The notes beneath the pieces were generated by a model. That model ran no database searches, was not told the DNA's origin, and worked only from the letters and a program-made list of their open reading frames with translations. Shown piece by piece: positions 32,543 through 42,444 of a stretch of 64,000 nt of DNA (position 1 is the stretch's first letter; each line of letters starts with the position of its first letter). Position numbers and translations under genes: made by a program. The stretch covers positions 21,338 through 85,337 of the forward strand of contig CAWDEW010000010.1 in assembly GCA_963801445.1 (NCBI GenBank), read 5' to 3'. The DNA comes from an uncultured Chloroflexia bacterium (GTDB taxonomy: Bacteria; Chloroflexota; Limnocylindria; Limnocylindrales; CSP1-4).

Positions 32543-35500
32543 ATGGCTCACGCGGGCTCCGACCTCACCCTCCGCACCGGTCGCACCGCCGCCGTTCCCG
32601 ACGGCTCGCGATCGCTCGCGCCCTCGCAGCGCGAGCCCCGCCTCGTGGCCGTCGGGCCGGGCCCAGCGATCCCGGACCAGTCGCCCGTGTTCGGCTCGAC
32701 GATGCAGGTGCACGAGTACCCCGTCCAGGACGGCAAGATCCAGCCACCGCTCCTCCCCGAGGAGACGCTCCAGCGCGACCGCCTGCTCGACTGGCTGCAC
32801 GCAAAGGTCCGCGGGCGGCTCGTGCTGATCCTCGCGGACGCCGGCTACGGCAAGACGACGCTGCTGGCCGACTGGACGCGTCGGACGAGGGTGCGAGCGC
32901 TCTGGTATCGCCTGGACGAGCACGACCGGGATTGGCCGGTGTTCATCCGCCACATCGTCGCGGCCGGGCGCGAGATCGACCCGGGCTTCGCACCCCAGAC
33001 GGAGGCGCTCCTGCGCGAGCTGGGCACCCCGCTCACGGATCGCCCGACCGTCGTTCGGACCCTCCAGGGAGAGCTGCAGGCGTGGGCGACCACCGGAACC
33101 GCGCTCGTCCTGGATGATTGGCACGCCGTCGACGACGTGCCCGAGATCCGCGACATCGTCCGGGAGCTGATCCTCCGCGGCCCGGATCGGCTGACCGTCG
33201 TCATCGCCTCCCGGCGACGCCCCACGCTCCCGGTCGCTCGCCTGCGCGCGATCGGCGAGGCCGCGGAGATCAGCACCGACGATCTCCGATTCGACCGCGA
33301 CGAAACCGAGCGTCTCTTCCGCGACAGCTACAAGCACCCGCTCGAGCGAGACCTGCTCGACGATCTGGCGCGCACGACCGACGGCTGGGCCGCGACGCTG
33401 CGCCTCGTCGAGTCGGCCGTTCGCGGCCGACCGCGCGAGGAGGTGCGCGCGGTGATCCGCAGCCTGTCCGGACGCCACGGCGACCTGCACGACTACCTGG
33501 CCGAGGAGGTCGTGGGGCGCATGTCCCTGGAGCAGCAGTCGTTCGTCGAACGGTGCTCGATCCTCGGGGTCGCGACCGCCGAGCTCGCCGCCGTCGCCGC
33601 CCAGGTCTCGGGCGATGAGGCGCGGTCCCACCTCGACGCCGCCGAGTCCTACGGCCTGCTCGCGCGCCGCGGTCGGACCGGTCAGGCCGGCCGACTCTTC
33701 CACCCGCTGGTCCGCACGTTCCTGGAGGGAAGGCTGCAGGACGCCGTCGGCGACGCGGAGGTCCGGGCCACCCACGCGCGGGTCGCCCGCGCTGCCGAGG
33801 CAGTCTCGTGGGCCGTCTCCGGTCACCATTACGCCGCGGCCGGCCTCAACACCGACGTCGCGCGCGTCCTCGCCGCCGCCGTCCCGACCATCCTCGGATC
33901 GGGCGCTCACGAGGAGGCCCGGCATCTTGAAGAGTACCTAGGCGGATCCCACCCAGGCGCGTGGTCCTACGTTCTGGAGGCGCACCGGAAGCTCCGGCTC
34001 GGCGATGTCGCCGGGGCGATCAACGCGGCTAACGCCATTGCACCTCTCCTAGAGTCCGGCGACATGTCCGTTAGCCGTCCCGTCGCGGCGACAGCTCGGA
34101 TGAATGCCTACTACGGCGCCGGCGAGTTCGAGATGGCATACCTCGAGGCCAAGTCAATCGAGTCGGATGGCAGCGAAGAGATCCCCGCGGAGCTTGCCCA
34201 GTCTGTCGTACTTCTGACCGAGTCGATGGTCGATGGTGATTTGAACGTGACTCTCCGGACGTGTCGCGAATTGGCGCGACGGATGTCGCTGCGGGGGCTC
34301 CACCACTACGAGGGGATCTCGTGGGTTAACGCGGGCTGGATCTGCCGAGTCCTGTTCGACTCCGCTGGAGCGAGAGAAGCCGGGCTCAGGGCCGTCGAAT
34401 GTCTGAGCTTCCACATCGTCCGGCCCTGAGATCAGTACCGCGCTCGCGGTCGCGGCGTGGGCCATGGCCCACTCGGGAGATACCAGCGGCGCAGGAGCCA
34501 CTCTGGCGAGAAGTCTGGAAGGTCAGTTCTGGAGCGCTCGGTTCGAGAGCCTTGTCGAGGCCGCCGACGTCCACAGTCCATATGGAGACGCGACCGAGGC
34601 GCGGCGGTTGCTCGACGACGCGGCCCGGGTTCAGGCGCCGAACCCGCGGCAGCGGCTGTTCCACGACTTGGTCAATGGCGAACACCTTGTTCGGGAGGGC
34701 GACCCGAAGGCGGCGCTTTCGATGCTCGACACCATCGCACATGGCACGCCAACCGGTTACCCGGGCTTCTACGTTCGCCTAGAGCTCGCGAGAGTCCACG
34801 CCCGCGTCCGTCTTGGCTGCCTCTCACGCGAGGACGCCGAGAAGGCAGAGCGGCGAGCCCGGCAGCAAGGGGCGGAGGCGGTGTTACCGCTCCTGCACGG
34901 CTTGATTGCCGTCGCCTGGGACAAGGCAGCACATCTTGACTCGCGAATTATGAGACTCGCTGAGACAGAGCCGGCGCTCGTGACCACGTTTGCCGAGGCA
35001 ATCCTGGACCGCAGCGACAGCTTGTCGGAATCCACTATGTCTGAGCTCGCGCGTGTCGCCCAAGTATTCCCCGAGCGATGGCGGCATGCGGCGAGATGCT
35101 CGATCGCAGATCCCGCGCCGAGCGTCCAGGCCAAGGCCGGATTGCTCCTCGAGGCAGTCGGGGATCGATCGGATGTGGCCAGGCTTCGGGAGCTCAGCCG
35201 ACAGCTTAGGGCGCCCTTTGCGAACCCGGACCTTGGGCGCAAGCTCGCGAGGCGCGTGGCCGACCGCGTAGTGGTTGAGGACCTCGGGCGAGTGTCGGTC
35301 CACGTTGGATCCCGAACCATCTCTGGCAGTTCCATTCGCCGAAAGGCTCTGGCACTCCTCTGCTTTCTCGTCTCTCAAAGAGGCTTTGCTGCCTCAAGAG
35401 ATCAGGTCCTGGAGGCAATGTGGCCCGAGTTTGAGCCCGATCAGGCCCTCAATTCCCTACACCAGACGGCGTACTTCCTCCGCCGCGTATTCGAGCAGCC

Positions 35501-35976
35501 ATTCAGTGAGGACACATCGCCCGGGTATTTGCGCACCTGACGGTGAACTCATCTGGCTCGACAGCGAATTGGTGCAGTCACAGAGCAGAACCTTCCGGGA
35601 TCTGATCACAAGCCAGGGTGGAGAAGACGATCCGATCCTCGTGGACAAGATCACGCTGCTCTATGGTGGCCGCTTCGCTCTCGACTTCCTCTATGACGAG
35701 TGGGCGCGGCCTGCGAGAGAGTCGATGCACACCCGCTACGTGGAGGTGGTAGAGCGGTCAGTCACGTCCGATATGAGGTCCGGCCACTTCGGGAGGGCCA
35801 TCACGATCGCAGGACGGGCTCTGGAAGTGGACCCGAGCTTGGACGAGATGGAGAAGAACCTGGTCAAGCTCTACCAGCTGTCCGGCGCACATCGTGCCGC
35901 GGCTGAGCAGTACGCGCATTACGCAGAGACCATGCGCGAGTTGGGCCTCGAGGTCCCGCCGCTGGATCTTCTTTGA
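32543..35976 (+). CDS. Large MalT-like STAND transcriptional regulator: NTPase, helical/TPR-like sensor, C-terminal wHTH plus BTAD; frameshifts near 34410 and 35537
   Basis: KIQPP..LQRDRLL, ADAGYGKTT, LVLDDWH, GWAATLRL, DYLAEEV; C-terminal LGRVSV..RKALALLCFL..SRDQVLEAMWP and LY.G.F..D..YDEW..AR; single-base removals join three ORF-track pieces (about 1140 aa). Confidence 0.85.
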
Positions 35977-36099: not shown

Positions 36100-36179
36100 T
36101 TCTTCGGGCGCGATGATGCCCGTCCCTGAACTGGGCACTTAGGGGACGGACGGAGCGGCTAGTGCAACCGACCGGCGAA
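36100..36179 (+). ncRNA. Cyclic di-GMP-II riboswitch aptamer
   Basis: P1 TTCTTCGG/CCGGCGAA; ATGATG kink-turn strand; stem CCGTCCCT/AGGGGACGG; loop GGGCACTT pseudoknotting with AGTGC; GAG; TAGTGCAACCGACC; CGC/GCG pairing where the C. acetobutylicum aptamer has AAC/GUU (recalled consensus). Confidence 0.88.
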
Positions 36180-36200
36180 TAAGCAGGTCGGTTTTCGTGT
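36166..36200 (+). terminator. Intrinsic terminator overlapping the riboswitch 3' end
   Basis: AACCGACC (36166-36173) / GGTCGGTT (36186-36193) stem followed by TTCGTGTT. Confidence 0.7.
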
Positions 36201-36292: not shown

Positions 36293-36385
36293 ATGATGAA
36301 GACGCGATTGCTACAGGTCCTCGCGACCATGGCAACCCTCGCCGCCGCCGTGTTGGCTGGTGGCGCGTCGCTGAGGGGTTTCTAG
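36293..36385 (+). CDS. 30-aa putative signalling peptide precursor MMKTRLLQVLATMATLAAAVLAGGASLRGF
   Basis: Basic N-terminus, hydrophobic core, AGGA, short polar tail; sole ORF between riboswitch and HD-GYP gene. Confidence 0.75.
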   Translation: MMKTRLLQVLATMATLAAAVLAGGASLRGF

Positions 36386-36459: not shown

Positions 36460-37840
36460 ATGTCTAGATCCCTCAAGCTATACCTCACGGCGCTCGTGAC
36501 CATAGGCGGTCTTGTGATCGTGGTCACGAGCGTTGTGATTCAGCCCGACCAGCGAATCGCGATCGACCTTTCCGGCTCGAGCGCGGTCAATGTTGCGCTC
36601 GGGCTCGGCTTTTGGACCGTCGTGACTCTCGCCGCCTCGGCGTTCCCTGTCACAATGCCCCGCGGCTCCGTCGTGAGTACGTCGATCGCGCCGATGGTGG
36701 CGGTCATGTACCTCGGAGGTCCAGCGGCTGCTGCGATCGTGGCGACCCTTGGGACGACCGAATTGCGAGAGCTGCGAGGTCGCGTCCCCTGGTATGGAAC
36801 GCTGGCAAACCATATCGGGGTCGCTGTTCCGGCAATAGCCGGTGCCGCGGTGATTCGTTGGATTGGCGGGCCGGGTGCGCCCGGGTTGCACGATTTCGCG
36901 GCGACCCTGTTGGGCGGGCTGGTGTTCCATTCGATGAACATCACGCTCTGCCGCCATCAGTGTTGCTCTGCGCCGCGATGAAGGCGTGGCTGGAGTCGTT
37001 CTCGCCGACCTTCGACTCTACTTCCTGTCGGGACTCGCGATTGTCCCTCTGGCTTGGTTGATGGCCCAGCTCTACAACATCGCCGGCGTCGGCTGGTGGG
37101 CGGTACTGCTCGTTGTTCTTCCTGTCTACGTGATGCGGCTAGCCTTGCGACAAGTCGTCGAGATGCGGGAGATGTTCACCCAGACCATTGGGGCGCTCGC
37201 CGGGGCGGTGGATGCGCGGGATGTCTACACGTCGAACCACAGCCATCGGGTCCAGACGATCGCGGTGGACATCGGGCGCGTGATGAAGCTTCCGGAGCAC
37301 GAGATCGAGGCCCTGGAGTGGGGCGGCCTGCTCCATGACATCGGGAAGATCGGGGTGCCGGACAGCGTCCTGCTCAACCCGGGGAAGCTCACCAAGGAAG
37401 AGCGGGCCTCGATGAACGCGCATCCCGTGAAGGGAGCCAAGATCGTCGCGAAGGTCGAGAAGCTGGCGCCGGAGCTGCCGATCATTCGCCACCACCACGA
37501 GTGGTACAACGGGTCCGGGTACCCGGACCGGTTGATGGGCGACGAGATCCCCAAGCTCGCCCGGGTCCTGCACGTCGCCGATGCTTTCGAGGCGATGATC
37601 GCCCAGAGACCCTACCGGATGAGCCCGTTGACGCATGAGCAGGCGATCGCTGAGCTGCGCAAGTTCTCGGGGATCCAGTTCGACCCGGTCGTCGTCGACG
37701 CCTTCGTCAAGACGAAGTGGGCCGACGGGTTCGGGGATTTCAACCGCTCGCACCCGATGCGAACCGTGCCCTACCTCGCCCAGGCCGCGAGCCGGATGGC
37801 GCCGCCGCCCGGGGACGCGGCTCCAGCCGACGCCTCCTGA
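36460..37840 (+). CDS. Membrane-anchored HD-GYP c-di-GMP phosphodiesterase; +1 frameshift near 36950
   Basis: About 6-7 N-terminal TM helices; HSHRV, LHDIGKIG, HHHEWYNGSGYP, ARVLHVADAFEAM; GAGGA RBS; dropping one T in ctc-t-gcc gives ITLAAISVALRRDEGVAGVVLAD. Confidence 0.92.
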
Positions 37841-37852
37841 GCTCGACCGCGA

Positions 37853-39880
37853 GTGCTGTTCGCGGCTCTGATCGTCGGGTTCCTGGCCGGGATCGCGGCC
37901 GGCGGCAAGGTCGACAACCTTCTCGCGGTCCGCCTGCGCTGGGCGCTGGTGATCTTCGGCGCGGTCGCGCTCCGCCTCGGCACCGAGGCCGCGCTCTCTC
38001 GAGGCATCGCCGTCGCCGACCAGCTGCGGGTGCCGCTGCTGGGTGCCGCGTACCTCGTGCTGGCCGTCGGCCTCTGGGTGAACCGATCGCGCCCGGGGAT
38101 GACCCTGGCCCTCGTCGGGATCGGTGCCAACGCGTTCGCGATCCTGGTGAACGGCGGCTACATGCCGGTCTGGAGCGCCAGCCTCATCGCGGCGGGCTTC
38201 CCGGCCGACGAGCCGCTCTCGGCGATCCACAAGGTCCTCTCGGCGGCCGACGTGAGCTTCCTGACGTCGGCGGGGCCACTGGGCGACATCATCCCGATCG
38301 GCCTGGCGCCCCTCCGGAACGTCCTCTCGATCGGCGATGTGCTGCTGGCCGCGGGCCTGGCCTTCTTCCTGTTCGCGAGCCTGGTCCGCCGCCCGGGCGA
38401 GCTGGAGACGCTCGCCGAGCGCGTCCGCACGGGGCCGCTCCCGGCCCGCCCCGTCGCCCTCGGCGGAGTGGTCGCAGACGAGGCGTCACGCACGGTACGG
38501 CCCGGGACCGGGCTGGCCGGCGGGGTGCTGGACGCGGCGTCGGCCATGGACCGCCCGATGATGCTCGGCGGCTCGGGGGCCGGGATCGCCGTGCCGTCGC
38601 CGACCCGGGCCGTGGTGCTCCGCCGGCCGGTCGGGATCCGGGAGCGGGCGCTGCGCCACCCGTACGTGCGGCTGGCGTTGAACGGACCCTTCACCGCGCT
38701 CTGGACGGGCCAGGTCGTCAGCCTGTTCGGGGATCGGGTACACCAGATCGCCCTGGCCGCGCTGGTGCTCGGGACGACCGGGTCGGCGCTGGCGGCGGGC
38801 CTCGTGTTCGCGGCTGCCGCCCTCCCGAACCTCCTGTTCGGTCCGTTCGCCGGCGTGCTCGTGGACCGCTGGAACCAGAAGCACGTGATGATCGCCAGCG
38901 ACCTCATCCGGGCCGCGATCGTGCTGTCCATCCCGGCCAGCACGGCAATGAACGTCACCCTGGTCTATCCGCTGGTCTTCGTGCTCACGACCGTCTCGAT
39001 CTTCTTCCGCCCCGCGCGGACCGCCGTGATCCCGCGCCTCGTGCGGGAGGACGAGCTGACCGCCGCGAACTCCGCGACGTGGATCGGCGAGACCCTCGCC
39101 GATGTCGCGGGCTACCCGATCGCCGGGCTGTTCGTGGGGGTCCTCGGCGGTGCGGTGGCGGTGGCCTTCTGGGTCGACTCGGCGACCTACGTCGCGTCGG
39201 CCGCGCTGATCGCGGTGACGGCCATCCCGCCCGTGGTGCGGACGCTGGCTGATGCCGGCAAGGGCATCGCGGGCTTCCGCCGTGACCTGGTCGCCGGCTG
39301 GACCTTCCTCCGTCACGAACCCGTCCTGCTCGCGAACACGCTCCAGGCGATCGTCGGGCAGGCGACGATCGGCGTCGCGATCACGCTCGTGCCCGTCTTC
39401 GCCCGGGACGTCCTGAGGGATTCCTCGCTCCCGTGGGAGACCACCTACGCCTACATGGAGGCGGTCCTCGGGATGGGCAACCTGATCGGCGGCTTCTTCA
39501 TCGGCCTGCTGGGCGCCCGGCTCGCGAAGGGGCGGATGGTGATCGTCGGCTACGTCGCCTACGGCCTGCTCGTCGCCGGCTTCGCATTCGCCGGCAACGT
39601 GGCCATCGCGATCGGGCTCTCGTTCGGGATGGGGATCGCGAACATGGTGTTCGTCATCCCGACCCAGACGCTCTTCCAGGAGCGAACCCCGAACGAGCTC
39701 CTGGGGCGAGTCGTGAGCTTCCGCTTCTCGGCGGTCTTCGGCGCGATGACGCTCGCGATGGCGGTCGGGGGGATCCTCGGCGAGGCGTTCGGTGCGCCGC
39801 TCGTCCTCGGGGCGTTCGGCCTCCTGACCGCGTTCGCCGGGCTGGCCGGCACGGCAAGTCGCCCACTGCGCGACGCGTAG
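37853..39880 (+). CDS. DUF5317 domain fused to an MFS transporter
   Basis: N-terminal GIGAN..ILVNGGYMPV and LGDIIP...VLSIGDVLL (DUF5317 hallmarks); C-terminal FTALWTGQVVSLFGD, GVLVDRWN, LLGRVVS (12-TM MFS). Confidence 0.85.
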   Translation: MLFAALIVGFLAGIAAGGKVDNLLAVRLRWALVIFGAVALRLGTEAALSRGIAVADQLRVPLLGAAYLVLAVGLWVNRSRPGMTLALVGIGANAFAILVNGGYMPVWSASLIAAGFPADEPLSAIHKVLSAADVSFLTSAGPLGDIIPIGLAPLRNVLSIGDVLLAAGLAFFLFASLVRRPGELETLAERVRTGPLPARPVALGGVVADEASRTVRPGTGLAGGVLDAASAMDRPMMLGGSGAGIAVPSPTRAVVLRRPVGIRERALRHPYVRLALNGPFTALWTGQVVSLFGDRVHQIALAALVLGTTGSALAAGLVFAAAALPNLLFGPFAGVLVDRWNQKHVMIASDLIRAAIVLSIPASTAMNVTLVYPLVFVLTTVSIFFRPARTAVIPRLVREDELTAANSATWIGETLADVAGYPIAGLFVGVLGGAVAVAFWVDSATYVASAALIAVTAIPPVVRTLADAGKGIAGFRRDLVAGWTFLRHEPVLLANTLQAIVGQATIGVAITLVPVFARDVLRDSSLPWETTYAYMEAVLGMGNLIGGFFIGLLGARLAKGRMVIVGYVAYGLLVAGFAFAGNVAIAIGLSFGMGIANMVFVIPTQTLFQERTPNELLGRVVSFRFSAVFGAMTLAMAVGGILGEAFGAPLVLGAFGLLTAFAGLAGTASRPLRDA

Positions 39881-39982
39881 GGGCGGCCCTCCGCTACACT
39901 CAGCGGCCGGAGCGCACCTCGCCTCGCGAGAGCAGCGCGCACGTCGCTGGACGGCGACGACCACGGAGGAGTGACGCACGCG

Positions 39983-40567
39983 ATGACCGAGCGGGACGAC
40001 CGCGCGCCGGGCGACGAGCCCGAGGAGGCGCAGGACGGCGAGGCGCTCGAGGCCGGGGCCGAAGGCGAAGGTGAAGGCGAAGGCGACGAGGGCATCGACG
40101 AGACGGCCCCCGTCGATGAGACGGGCTGGGAGGCGGAGGACGCCGCCGTCGAGCAGGCGAGCGCCGGCGAGCGCCCCCGGCCGACCGGCCGCTCGCGGCG
40201 TGGCATGCCGGTCGTCGCGCCCGCACCCACCGCCTCCGACGTCGCGGTCCACATCGACGACCGGGTCTCCAAGGGGTTCGTGATCGCGGTCGCGGCGCTG
40301 TTCGTGCTGGCCTTCCTGTACCCGCTGTTCCTGGGCCACGGCGGCCTCTTCACGCCGATCGTCACGCCTGCTCCGACGGCCGTGCCCGCGATAGAAACGC
40401 CACCCCCGACCGCATCGCCTGCGCCCTCGGCAACGGCCTCCGCGTCGCCCGCCGTCTCGGGTTCGCCTGCAGCGTCGGCGGCGGCGTCCACGTCGCCGGC
40501 TCCATCTGCCTCGGCGACCGCCTCCAGGTCGCCGGCGCCGTCCCCGTCGGGTTCCAAGGCTCCCTAA
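39983..40567 (+). CDS. Bitopic membrane protein: acidic N-terminus, one TM, Ser/Ala/Pro/Thr-rich C-terminus
   Basis: Translation; GGAGGA upstream. Confidence 0.65.
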   Translation: MTERDDRAPGDEPEEAQDGEALEAGAEGEGEGEGDEGIDETAPVDETGWEAEDAAVEQASAGERPRPTGRSRRGMPVVAPAPTASDVAVHIDDRVSKGFVIAVAALFVLAFLYPLFLGHGGLFTPIVTPAPTAVPAIETPPPTASPAPSATASASPAVSGSPAASAAASTSPAPSASATASRSPAPSPSGSKAP

Positions 40568-40667
40568 GCGCCGACGCAGGGGGCGGGCGCCGCAGGGGGC
40601 GCGGACCCGGGGTGGGCGCCGACCCAGGGGCAGGGGCGCCGGCGCGCCCGGGGTCTATGCTCGCGGC

Positions 40668-41321
40668 GTGAGCGCCACGCGCGATCCATACGCGGCCGAG
40701 CGCGCCGCGATGCTCGCCCAGCTCCGCGCCCGCGGCCTGACCGACCGTCGGGTGCTGGACGCCATGGACAGCGTGCCCCGCGAGGAGTTCGTCGAGCCGG
40801 GAGACCGGCCGCGGGCGTATGCGGACGCGGCAATCCCCATCGCCGCGGGGCAGGCGATCAGCCAGCCCCTGATGGTCGCGATCATGACCGAGCTGCTGCG
40901 GGTCGAGCCGGGCATGCGAGTCCTGGAGATCGGCACCGGGTCGGGGTACCAGGCCGCCATCCTCGCGGTCATGGGCTGCCAGGTCACCGGGATCGAGCGC
41001 CTGTCCGGGCTGGCGACGACCGCCCGGGCCCGAATCGCCGCGCTGGGCCTGGGCGAGCGGGTGGATGTCCGGGTGGGCGACGGCACCCTCGGCGCCCCCG
41101 ACGGCGCCCCCTGGCCGAGGATCCTGGTCACGGCGGCCGCGCAGCGGATCCCCCAGGCGCTGGCCGGCCAGCTGGCCGAGGGCGGCCGAATCGTGATCCC
41201 GGTCGGCACGCGCTGGGAGCAGGACCTGCTCGTCGGCGAGCGCCGCGGCACGGATCTCGAGATCAGCAGCCACGGCGGGTGCGTGTTCGTCCCGCTCGTC
41301 GGCGAGGGCGGCTGGCGCTGA
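40668..41321 (+). CDS. pcm: Protein-L-isoaspartate O-methyltransferase
   Basis: VPREEF, QAISQP, VLEIGTGSGYQAA, ILVTAAA, FVPLVG. Confidence 0.95.
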   Translation: MSATRDPYAAERAAMLAQLRARGLTDRRVLDAMDSVPREEFVEPGDRPRAYADAAIPIAAGQAISQPLMVAIMTELLRVEPGMRVLEIGTGSGYQAAILAVMGCQVTGIERLSGLATTARARIAALGLGERVDVRVGDGTLGAPDGAPWPRILVTAAAQRIPQALAGQLAEGGRIVIPVGTRWEQDLLVGERRGTDLEISSHGGCVFVPLVGEGGWR

Positions 41322-41367
41322 GCGGCCGCGCCTTCGGCCCAGGCCTCGACGGTATACTCGCCGCGCC

Positions 41368-42444
41368 ATGACCCACGTCTTCGTCGCCCCCCACCCCGAC
41401 GACGTCGCCCTCTCGTGCGGCGGGCTGGTCGCCAGCCTGCGCGAGATCGGCCAGAACGTCACGATCATCACGGTCTTCTCCGGGAACGGCGCGTCGAGCG
41501 CGCTCAGCCCGTACCAGCGCGAGGCGCTCGGCTTCGGGAGCAAGGCGATCTGGCCGACCACGGAGGCCTTCAATCGGGCCAACATCGCGGCGGACGAGCC
41601 GCTGGACCCGGGGGCGACCGCGCCGTACTTCGCCCAGAAGGATCGGCTCGACGCGACGCAGGCCGAGGCGGACGCGGCGGCGAAGCGCTTCTGGCAGCGC
41701 TCCTCGTGGTACCGGCGGGCCGACATCCACAGCCGCTCGCTCGCCGGCCAGGCGCTGATGGACGACGTGCCCCAGGCCGGCGCACTCCTGACCGACGCGC
41801 TGGTCGAGGCAAGGGCAGCCGGGGACCTGATGGCCGCCCGACGGCTCGAGGACGAGGCGTACGCCTACTTCGCCGAGGCGTCGATCGTCTTCCTGGACCA
41901 GCCGGATGCGGTCTTCCGCGGCTACGAAGGAGATGAGCAGCTCCTGGCCAGGCCGCGCGACGACGATCGCGCGCCCCTCGACCTCCTCGTCAGGGAGATC
42001 GCCCGGCTCGAACCCCAGAAGGTCTACCTCCCGCTGGGCATCGGTGACCACGTGGATCACCAGCTCATGCGCGAGGTGGGCGTGGCGCTCCTGGAGCTCG
42101 GTCGGCGCTGGGTGATGCCCGGGCCGGAGTACGCCGGGATCGTCACGTACTACGAGGACTTCCCGTACGCGTGGTGGAACGGGTTCGACCGGCTGGGGGA
42201 CCTGCCGGCCGGCGCGTTCGCGGGGCTCCCGCCCGACATCGGGATCACGCCCGAGTACGCGGACATCGGCGACATGCTCGACCGCAAGATCACCGGCATC
42301 GCGCTCTACGAGAGCCAGCTTGACCGGCTGTTCGGCGGCCGCGATGCGATGGCGGATGCCGTCCGCGGGTACGGCGCGAAGGTCGCGGGGCTCGCCGGTC
42401 GTGGCGGTGCCGCGGAGCGCTACTGGGCGAGCTCGAGGATCTGA
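41368..42444 (+). CDS. PIG-L/LmbE family deacetylase
   Basis: APHPDDVALSCGG, RRLED, HVDHQL, YYEDFPY. Confidence 0.85.
   Translation: MTHVFVAPHPDDVALSCGGLVASLREIGQNVTIITVFSGNGASSALSPYQREALGFGSKAIWPTTEAFNRANIAADEPLDPGATAPYFAQKDRLDATQAEADAAAKRFWQRSSWYRRADIHSRSLAGQALMDDVPQAGALLTDALVEARAAGDLMAARRLEDEAYAYFAEASIVFLDQPDAVFRGYEGDEQLLARPRDDDRAPLDLLVREIARLEPQKVYLPLGIGDHVDHQLMREVGVALLELGRRWVMPGPEYAGIVTYYEDFPYAWWNGFDRLGDLPAGAFAGLPPDIGITPEYADIGDMLDRKITGIALYESQLDRLFGGRDAMADAVRGYGAKVAGLAGRGGAAERYWASSRI

Follow-up and report, generated by a model that had tools for sequence, protein, structure and literature searches.

DUF5317, fused to a transporter and encoded behind a c-di-GMP riboswitch in a Chloroflexia bacterium, as a candidate aspartyl membrane peptidase for a co-encoded peptide

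Signal peptidase II (LspA; MEROPS family A8, PF01252) has a fold of four transmembrane (TM) helices, with a beta-cradle that follows TM1 on the periplasmic side and a helix in the periplasm, and carries the motifs G-A-x-G-N-x-x-D-R on TM3, V-x-D-F where TM3 ends and F-N-x-A-D where TM4 begins; its cleavage activity is sensitive to globomycin or myxovirescin, and its substrates are marked by a lipobox that ends in diacylglyceryl-Cys at +1. The Agr system combines an endopeptidase (AgrB, a Cys/His membrane enzyme) with a small propeptide and a membrane sensor, and in peptidase-containing ATP-binding cassette (ABC) transporters (PCATs) a C39 peptidase domain is fused to an ABC exporter. Here we compare these systems with a membrane domain of the family DUF5317 (PF17248), encoded in a 64,000-nucleotide stretch of DNA from an uncultured Chloroflexia bacterium (contig CAWDEW010000010.1; the whole stretch is called the window), where it is fused to a transporter of the major facilitator superfamily (MFS). 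An interpretation made from the letters of this DNA (the sequence-only reading) had proposed that DUF5317 is a distant A8-like peptidase that clips the leader of a neighbouring peptide, and that the fusion couples processing to export in the manner of a PCAT. Our analysis assigned a probability of about 0.35 to DUF5317 being a dedicated Asp-dyad membrane peptidase for the co-encoded peptide, while its membership of A8 lacked fold-level support and kinship to LspA was not established.

The fusion gene is a single open reading frame (ORF) on the + strand (37853..39880) that starts with GTG, 12 nt past the stop codon of the upstream HD-GYP ORF, and encodes 675 amino acids (aa). Its first 185 residues (37853..38407, +), delimited by Pfam and AlphaFold2, make up the DUF5317 domain, with five predicted TM helices and a 60-residue outer loop; PF17248 matched residues 26-173 with an E-value of 2.7e-23 (83.1 bits versus a gathering score of 25) over 149 of its 151 profile positions, which places the domain within the family. 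A linker of low complexity, rich in Arg, Ala, Gly and Pro, free of Pfam matches and predicted to be cytoplasmic (residues 186-278; 38408..38686, +), separates it from a 12-TM, DHA3-like MFS transporter domain (38687..39880, +), in which MFS_1 (PF07690; E = 1e-31, 110 bits) and MFS_3 (PF05977; E = 4e-26, 92 bits) both matched residues 279-665 above their cut-offs. The MFS half came nearest to the DHA3 group (TIGR00900, Mef/Tap/EntS), an approximate subfamily assignment, the NCBIfam match (E = 6.7e-65, 219.8 bits) lying below the subfamily cut-off of 319.6; compared by sequence with solved structures, this half gave no match. The uninterrupted 675-aa frame had been recognised in the sequence-only reading, and more than 400 clusters, formed at 90% identity, share the same architecture (DUF5317 plus MFS_3, 660-740 aa), which shows the fusion to be no assembly artefact; those fusion clusters that bear a name were labelled Chloroflexota or Candidatus Limnocylindria. 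The proposed Rosetta-stone link between both domains was also mirrored in distant lineages, where DUF5317 and MFS_3 are encoded by adjacent genes that overlap or abut (loci L003-L006, L087 and L095). For P0045 (34% identical; L003-L006), separate genes for MASE9-HD-GYP, DUF5317 and MFS_3 follow one another in this order, the first two overlapping and MFS_3 beginning on the last base of DUF5317 (MASE9 together with HD_5 was recorded in L003), and in L095 DUF5317 and then MFS_3 lie behind a gene without recorded Pfam matches.

A profile search of 1.84 billion representatives returned 7383 DUF5317 clusters at E ≤ 1e-3, mostly from Chloroflexota-type metagenomic lineages, and conservation was counted over 143 diverse representatives of 50%-identity clusters. 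The motifs, coordinates and Asp positions on which the sequence-only reading was built proved exact: GIGAN begins at residue 89 (nt 38117), ILVNGG at 97, LGDII at 143 and LSIGDVLL at 158, with D145 (nt 38285) and D162 (nt 38336) spaced by 17 residues. Both Asp are conserved across PF17248, as had been expected. D145, which lies in L-G-D-[VI] (codon 38285..38287, +), was kept in 143 of 143 representatives, together with N77, G89, N93, G102 and M104; D162, N100, P105, S159 and G161 were each present in 142, the single D162 exception being a gap. Eleven polar or small residues are thus invariant or absent in just one sequence, followed by P150 (141/143), G168 (136/143) and N156 (119/143). Most of these positions fall into two blocks, a polar stripe on TM4 (G89-x3-N93-x3-I97-x2-N100-G-G-Y-M-P105; 38117..38167, +) and the start of TM5 (N156-V-x-S159-x-G161-D162-x5-G168; 38318..38356, +, with the Asp162 codon at 38336-38338). 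Judged from the alignment, this conservation is enzyme-like and far beyond chance. The copy in the window deviates in the hairpin between both invariant Asp, where it carries G150 and A152 (residues 150-153; 38300-38311) and reads P-I-G-L-A-P for the P-V-P-L-P of its relatives; it is one of the two P150 exceptions among the 143, and P152 is found in most fused relatives.

An AlphaFold2 model of the domain, computed from a 58-sequence alignment, was of high confidence (predicted local distance difference test, pLDDT, 94.2; predicted TM-score, pTM, 0.87) and agreed with a second model made for the distant member P0071 (pLDDT 91). Its helices comprise residues 2-15, 31-49, 59-76, 83-99 and 160-178, and residues 100-159 form a 60-residue loop, with short strands and helices, between the last two. 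The N-terminus would lie outside, the C-terminus inside and the 100-159 loop outside, a predicted topology that follows from the basic loops (K19/R27/R29, N77-R-S-R and R179-R180) under the positive-inside rule, and from the Arg-rich linker and the C-terminal fusion to an MFS protein, the N-terminus of MFS proteins being cytoplasmic. In the model, D162 stands at the start of the last helix, and D145 follows a 10-residue helix (134-143) within the outer loop, two residues ahead of strand 147-149. The earlier placement of both Asp at TM boundaries therefore applies to D162 and fails for D145, which is predicted in an extracytoplasmic loop; in the predicted topology both Asp lie on the extracytoplasmic side. 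Strand 147-149 probably pairs with strand 156-158 as a beta-hairpin, and D145 and D162 are probably adjacent in space, as both flank this predicted hairpin just ahead of the last TM helix. Further polar residues would line one face of TM4 across the membrane, with N77 on the cytoplasmic side, N93 mid-membrane and N100 on the outer side. Two putative fusions of other build, HD_5+DUF5317 (P0106) and HD_5+DUF5317+MFS (P0120), were set aside as probable read-through or gene-calling artefacts, because a cytoplasmic HD domain does not fit, by topology, in front of a DUF5317 whose N-terminus lies outside.

At the head of the operon we read an unannotated, signal-peptide-like ORF of 30 aa (MMKTRLLQVLATMATLAAAVLAGGASLRGF, then a stop codon; 36293..36385, +). 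An ORF of 29-32 aa was present in all 24 riboswitch-bearing fused-type loci and followed the pattern MKxRhhRh(13)[LIMVF]AGGA[SG][LFIV]x[GP][FW], after which translation stops; the hydrophobic core is variable, and A-G-G-A and the tail are conserved. Beside distant DUF5317 genes, standalone ones among them, lie related peptides with the tail A-x-x-[RK]-W, whose C-terminus reads L-[GAS]-A-[GP]-x-[RK]-W-x(0-3). The DUF5317-associated mini-ORFs span 29-35 aa overall, and one such ORF (MATAKSFLLRVCVLASFVLVLAAPFRWNS, then a stop codon) stands directly ahead of the gene for P0382, a DUF5317-GAF-GGDEF protein. The association of peptide ORF and DUF5317 extends over lineages that are about 30-35% identical, with several different gene orders and both strands represented, and the peptides matched no family in Pfam or NCBIfam. 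They are built of a basic n-region, a hydrophobic core of 13-18 residues, a c-region of small residues and about five further residues, and [LIMV]-A-G at -3 to -1 resembles a lipobox with Gly, Ala or Pro where the Cys stands. The tail holds a basic residue and a Trp in most lineages, and in the fused type the basic position varies (R, K, N, Q or T). In some variants Pro directly follows the conserved Ala; a Pro at this place blocks signal peptidase I at that bond. The neighbouring peptide supposed by the sequence-only reading is thus a real and conserved component of these loci, with a signal-peptide-like body.

The operon opens with a cyclic di-GMP (c-di-GMP) class II riboswitch aptamer (RF01786; 36097..36182, +; 61.8 bits versus a gathering score of 53.5, E = 2.6e-12). 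The same aptamer was found upstream of the peptide ORF in 23 relatives, that is, L002 and 22 metagenomic fused-type loci, and RF03167, the GGC variant of class I, lies ahead of the same kind of mini-ORF in L087, L090 and L174. A terminator-like hairpin (36166..36197, +), composed of an 8-bp stem (AACCGACC/GGUCGGUU, 36166-36193) and a UUUU run, folded with -18.6 kcal/mol (z = -2.1) and escaped a simple terminator scan on account of its loop of more than 8 nt. As the hairpin overlaps the 3' strand of the aptamer, it is, by its sequence, a probable ON-switch expression platform. Two tandem peptide ORFs were seen behind one c-di-GMP-I-GGC riboswitch in L087 (3140-3361 and 3247-3333, both - strand) and in L174 (3708-3951, + strand).

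Between the peptide ORF and the fusion lies a gene (36460..37840, +) for a membrane (MASE9-like) HD-GYP phosphodiesterase, matched by HD_5 (E = 2.2e-38) and by the NCBIfam model of NosR-family c-di-GMP phosphodiesterases (E = 9e-43). In a metagenomic neighbourhood sample of 80 loci, a MASE9-like HD-GYP ORF of about 475 aa stood directly upstream in almost every fused-type locus with upstream DNA. Elsewhere the partners differ: the order is MFS_3, DUF5317 and GAF-GGDEF-EAL at the P0071 locus, P0062 and P0087 adjoin GGDEF-EAL genes, and P0061 and P0051 lie near histidine kinases. By locus, GGDEF-EAL partners were found in L087, L090, L093, L165, L169 and L171, and kinases in L091, L092 and L161-L163.

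These gene sets recall Agr, in that a membrane protein of about 180-190 aa accompanies a propeptide of 30-45 aa and a membrane-bound signalling protein; the order in L091, L092 and L162 (DUF5317, a protein of no recognised family, peptide, histidine kinase) is itself Agr-like. Unlike AgrB, however, DUF5317 is encoded under riboswitch control, bears no sequence or Pfam relation to AgrB, is accompanied by a peptide that has the build of an N-terminal signal peptide and would yield a very small C-terminal product, and has mostly c-di-GMP enzymes as its outputs. A conserved protein of about 216 aa without Pfam match was observed in one lineage (L091, 2342-3001; L092, 981-1631; L162, 3586-4260) between the standalone DUF5317 and the peptide ORF plus histidine kinase, and may be a further component of that variant of the module.

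Three functional readings were considered, and we placed the peptidase first, a peptide receptor second and a role unrelated to the peptide third, the first two being mutually compatible. The peptidase reading is favoured because the invariance is like that of an enzyme, the partner resembles a substrate and the gene sets recall agr. According to it, DUF5317 would be a compact five-helix membrane domain, with D145/D162 and a cluster of Asn and Ser on its outer-leaflet side, that acts on the peptide of about 30 aa from the head of the same operon. Cleavage would work like that of signal peptidase II, although DUF5317 does not demonstrably belong to that family, and a cut at the lipobox-like, Cys-free site would free a C-terminal 5-7-mer such as (G)ASLRGF; in this lineage, the fused DHA3-type MFS may handle the product or the leftover hydrophobic peptide. 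The c-di-GMP-II riboswitch would switch an operon that also encodes a membrane HD-GYP phosphodiesterase, and peptide production and c-di-GMP level would therefore be coupled. We regard as doubtful, though worth stating, the wider proposition that DUF5317 is an unrecognised family of outer-face Asp-dyad peptidases that mature Cys-less 'lipobox' peptides into signals of 5-7 residues and that, with two classes of c-di-GMP riboswitch and HD-GYP, GGDEF-EAL or kinase proteins, form a new circuit wired into c-di-GMP turnover.

With regard to coupled processing and export, the fusion and the peptide are real, and the analogy to a PCAT was weakened. As in a PCAT, a putative processing domain precedes a transporter in one polypeptide and the co-encoded peptide contains Gly-Gly. 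Unlike a PCAT, the transporter is an MFS protein and not an ABC exporter, no C39 domain was found with Pfam, little of the peptide lies outside its hydrophobic 'leader', the putative active site would face outward and not the cytoplasm, the product would have 5-7 residues and many DUF5317 loci have no transporter; the last three points are those that weaken the picture, and the likeness is one of architecture only. Unlike MFS, a c-di-GMP enzyme or a kinase is nearly always present at DUF5317 loci, a further flaw in the analogy.

Several results weigh against the peptidase reading, some of them from the comparison with LspA. DUF5317 resembles LspA in being a small polytopic membrane protein with two conserved Asp near the outer leaflet, spaced by about 17-19 residues, the second of which opens the last TM helix in [F]-[NS]-x-[AG]-D-x5-G, in having G-x3-N on the preceding helix, and in its likely substrate, of signal-peptide build with L-A-G at -3 to -1. 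It differs in having five predicted TM helices and not four, with its last two helices separated by the 60-residue outer loop and its first Asp away from a TM end, and it has no beta-cradle after the first helix. Its putative substrates, with [LIMVF]-A-G-G-A or L-[GAS]-A-[GP], are Cys-less there, carrying Gly, Ala or Pro for diacylglyceryl-Cys, and their 'mature' part would measure 4-7 residues. When both models were compared by Foldseek with 350,542 PDB chains, among them the LspA entries 5DIR, 6RYO and 9EMZ, no LspA chain and no other peptidase fold appeared at E ≤ 10, nothing fell below E = 2 and no TM-score exceeded 0.35; one model run against BFVD gave nothing significant, and a search of PDB sequences with the family profile returned only a chance match to carbamate kinase through 'NGG' (E = 0.35). 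The Foldseek result, obtained with two confident models that show a fold other than that of LspA, goes directly against the A8-like peptidase of the sequence-only reading, and no sequence match above threshold came to its aid.

Sequence comparisons were of the same tenor. The fusion protein gave no match to Peptidase_A8 (PF01252) in Pfam at E ≤ 10, and weak matches were given by 8 of 58 relatives, the best with E = 0.0016 and 19.1 bits versus a cut-off of 25 (other Pfam families were each matched by at most 3 of the 58). In NCBIfam, about 4 of the 58 weakly matched LspA models (E = 0.044-2.9), and 16 matched MrpE, a subunit of Na+/H+ antiporters, always below threshold. An LspA hidden Markov model (HMM) of our own rested on 83 sequences, namely 80 from gammaproteobacterial loci, the one of E. 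coli and the chains of P. aeruginosa and S. aureus. It gave more than 2 bits to 22 of the 88 real DUF5317 sequences; among the controls, 1 of 88 reversed and 16 of 440 shuffled sequences passed that score. Aligned by hhalign with LspA, the full DUF5317 profile reached 22.8, compared to 15.0 and 15.5 for reversed controls, and a sub-profile restricted to the 14 members most similar to LspA reached 18.3, compared to 18.1 and 17.1. The argument from weak LspA matches is tempered by this failed reversed control and by MrpE matches that are equally many. The only reproducible block placed F-S-I-G-D162-x5-G168 consistently opposite F-N-x-A-D141-x5-G147 of LspA. G89-x3-N93 came to stand opposite G-A-x-G-N, and L-G-D145 opposite V-V-D123 in permissive mode only, D145 not being at the end of a TM helix; in a co-linear alignment the first catalytic Asp of LspA fell on P105, with D145 lying 40 residues further on, past the short non-TM helix. 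The D-R position of LspA corresponds to A96/I97, and DUF5317 has nothing equivalent to the Asp/Lys of TM1, the Asn/Gly of the cradle or the Arg in G-N-x-x-D-R. There is, then, a motif-level resemblance to the catalytic blocks of LspA whose significance is uncertain. Two other candidates suggested by short motifs were rejected. GxGD proteases (A24 prepilin peptidase, A22 presenilin/signal peptide peptidase), suggested by S-I-G-D, were matched by 0 of 58 members at E ≤ 10, the DUF5317 motif being S-x-G-D and not GxGD, and the FlaK and PSH structures were not among the Foldseek matches; a PilZ-like c-di-GMP-binding motif (N-x-x-S-x-G) has the wrong spacing here and would lie on the outer face.

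The gene neighbourhoods also count against the peptidase reading, since many DUF5317 loci lack an MFS gene and DUF5317 keeps regular company with c-di-GMP enzymes or kinases, as sensory input domains do. They lead to a second, tentative explanation, the main rival of the first, in which DUF5317 serves without catalysis as an input domain or receptor in the membrane and binds the co-encoded peptide through its outer Asp/Asn pocket. The ligand would be either the membrane-inserted peptide or its secreted C-terminal tail, and the outputs would be the fused or neighbouring GAF-GGDEF, GGDEF-EAL, MASE9-HD-GYP and histidine kinase proteins and, here, the MFS. In P0382, DUF5317 is N-terminal to GAF-GGDEF in a single protein with only the peptide gene beside it, a fusion that points to a sensing role at least as much as to a peptidase. 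A DUF5317-TPR fusion (P0415) exists as well, no neighbour is as constant as a signalling enzyme (for nearly every fused-type locus, HD-GYP), the two invariant Asp could bind the basic residue and Trp that most lineages keep in the tail, and Foldseek detected no peptidase fold with either model. DUF5317 is comparable to MASE-type domains in being a polytopic membrane module N-terminal to GAF-GGDEF or adjoining HD-GYP or GGDEF-EAL proteins, and differs from them in being mostly a standalone protein of 180 aa with far stronger residue invariance. The description of MASE9 goes no further than a putative intramembrane sensor of HD-GYP proteins, and according to that description membrane sensor domains conserve few residues (Galperin & Chou preprint, 10.1101/2021.11.05.467447). 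The invariance of three to four Asn, two Asp, a Ser and Met-Pro over 143 representatives is unusual for such domains; moreover, the fused type does not conserve the basic residue in its tail, and hydrophobic cores of 13-14 residues fall short of what a stable ligand residing in the membrane needs.

Unlikely, but with some evidence of its own, is a role unrelated to the peptide, in which DUF5317 might assist the MFS and signalling proteins by conducting ions or protons or by handling lipids, and the Asn stripe of TM4 would form, with the Asp pair, a polar path through the membrane. The invariant polar residues do span the predicted membrane on one face of TM4, and N77, on the cytoplasmic side, is not obviously needed by a peptidase of the outer face. 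The MrpE matches and a weak NCBIfam similarity of the MFS half to LplT-type lipid transporters point in the same direction, and in at least one locus, L088, no peptide, MFS or c-di-GMP gene was seen near DUF5317. However, every MrpE match was below threshold, and the co-occurrence of peptide ORF and DUF5317 over such divergent lineages is hard to explain by chance or mere co-regulation. Lastly, and apart from the ranking of functional readings, we consider it quite improbable that DUF5317 is a true, highly divergent A8 member sharing ancestry with LspA, with an added helix at the N-terminus and an outer domain shifted out of the first periplasmic loop into the last: the co-linear motifs (G-A-x-x-N/G-A-x-G-N, [LT]-x-D-[IV]/V-x-D-F and F-S-x-G-D..G/F-N-x-A-D..G), an R-W common to both at the start of the first aligned helix, the Peptidase_A8 matches below threshold and three members labelled 'lipoprotein signal peptidase' by the Joint Genome Institute (JGI) pipeline stand against the empty Foldseek searches, curated cut-offs that were never reached, a significance that fails some controls, the LspA residues without counterparts and partner peptides that have no lipidated Cys.

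A literature search found no paper that mentions DUF5317, and searches for the c-di-GMP-II riboswitch with Chloroflexi, or for c-di-GMP-I-GGC, found nothing on such a system; the family, its peptide partner and its riboswitch link appear to be undescribed so far. A large family without assigned function thereby gains a testable partner, a conserved mini-ORF mostly missed by annotation pipelines, and a context of riboswitches and enzymes of c-di-GMP. Should the Asp pair prove catalytic, DUF5317 would represent a membrane aspartyl peptidase of a new kind and its operon the first case of peptide-signal maturation under direct control of a c-di-GMP riboswitch; should DUF5317 prove to be a receptor, c-di-GMP signalling would gain a new and very widespread input domain with a genetically encoded ligand. 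Either outcome would explain the target of conserved c-di-GMP-II and c-di-GMP-I-GGC riboswitches in Chloroflexota-like bacteria.

The HD-GYP gene of the window is split into two ORFs, 36460-36981 (173 aa) and 36986-37840 (284 aa), by a frameshift near 36945-36985. Relatives have one intact ORF of about 475 aa, and the gene is also broken in L002 and L124. The frameshift may be either real decay or an error of sequencing or assembly; a check against reads found no public sequencing run with more than 7% of the sequence words. The wider 34-38 kb stretch has a GC content of 63-65%, compared to about 72-75%, and holds a second likely frameshift, in an upstream regulator whose winged helix-turn-helix (wHTH; Trans_reg_C) and BTAD parts lie in overlapping frames (34464-35540 and 35275-35976, +; 34464-35976 as a whole) and whose counterpart in L002 is one ORF. 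Downstream of the fusion (39971-42444, +) follow genes for a 198-aa protein rich in Ala, Pro and Ser, a PCMT methyltransferase and a PIG-L deacetylase; L002 keeps Pfam-matched counterparts of the latter two in the same order, and the neighbourhood is thus conserved beyond the operon.

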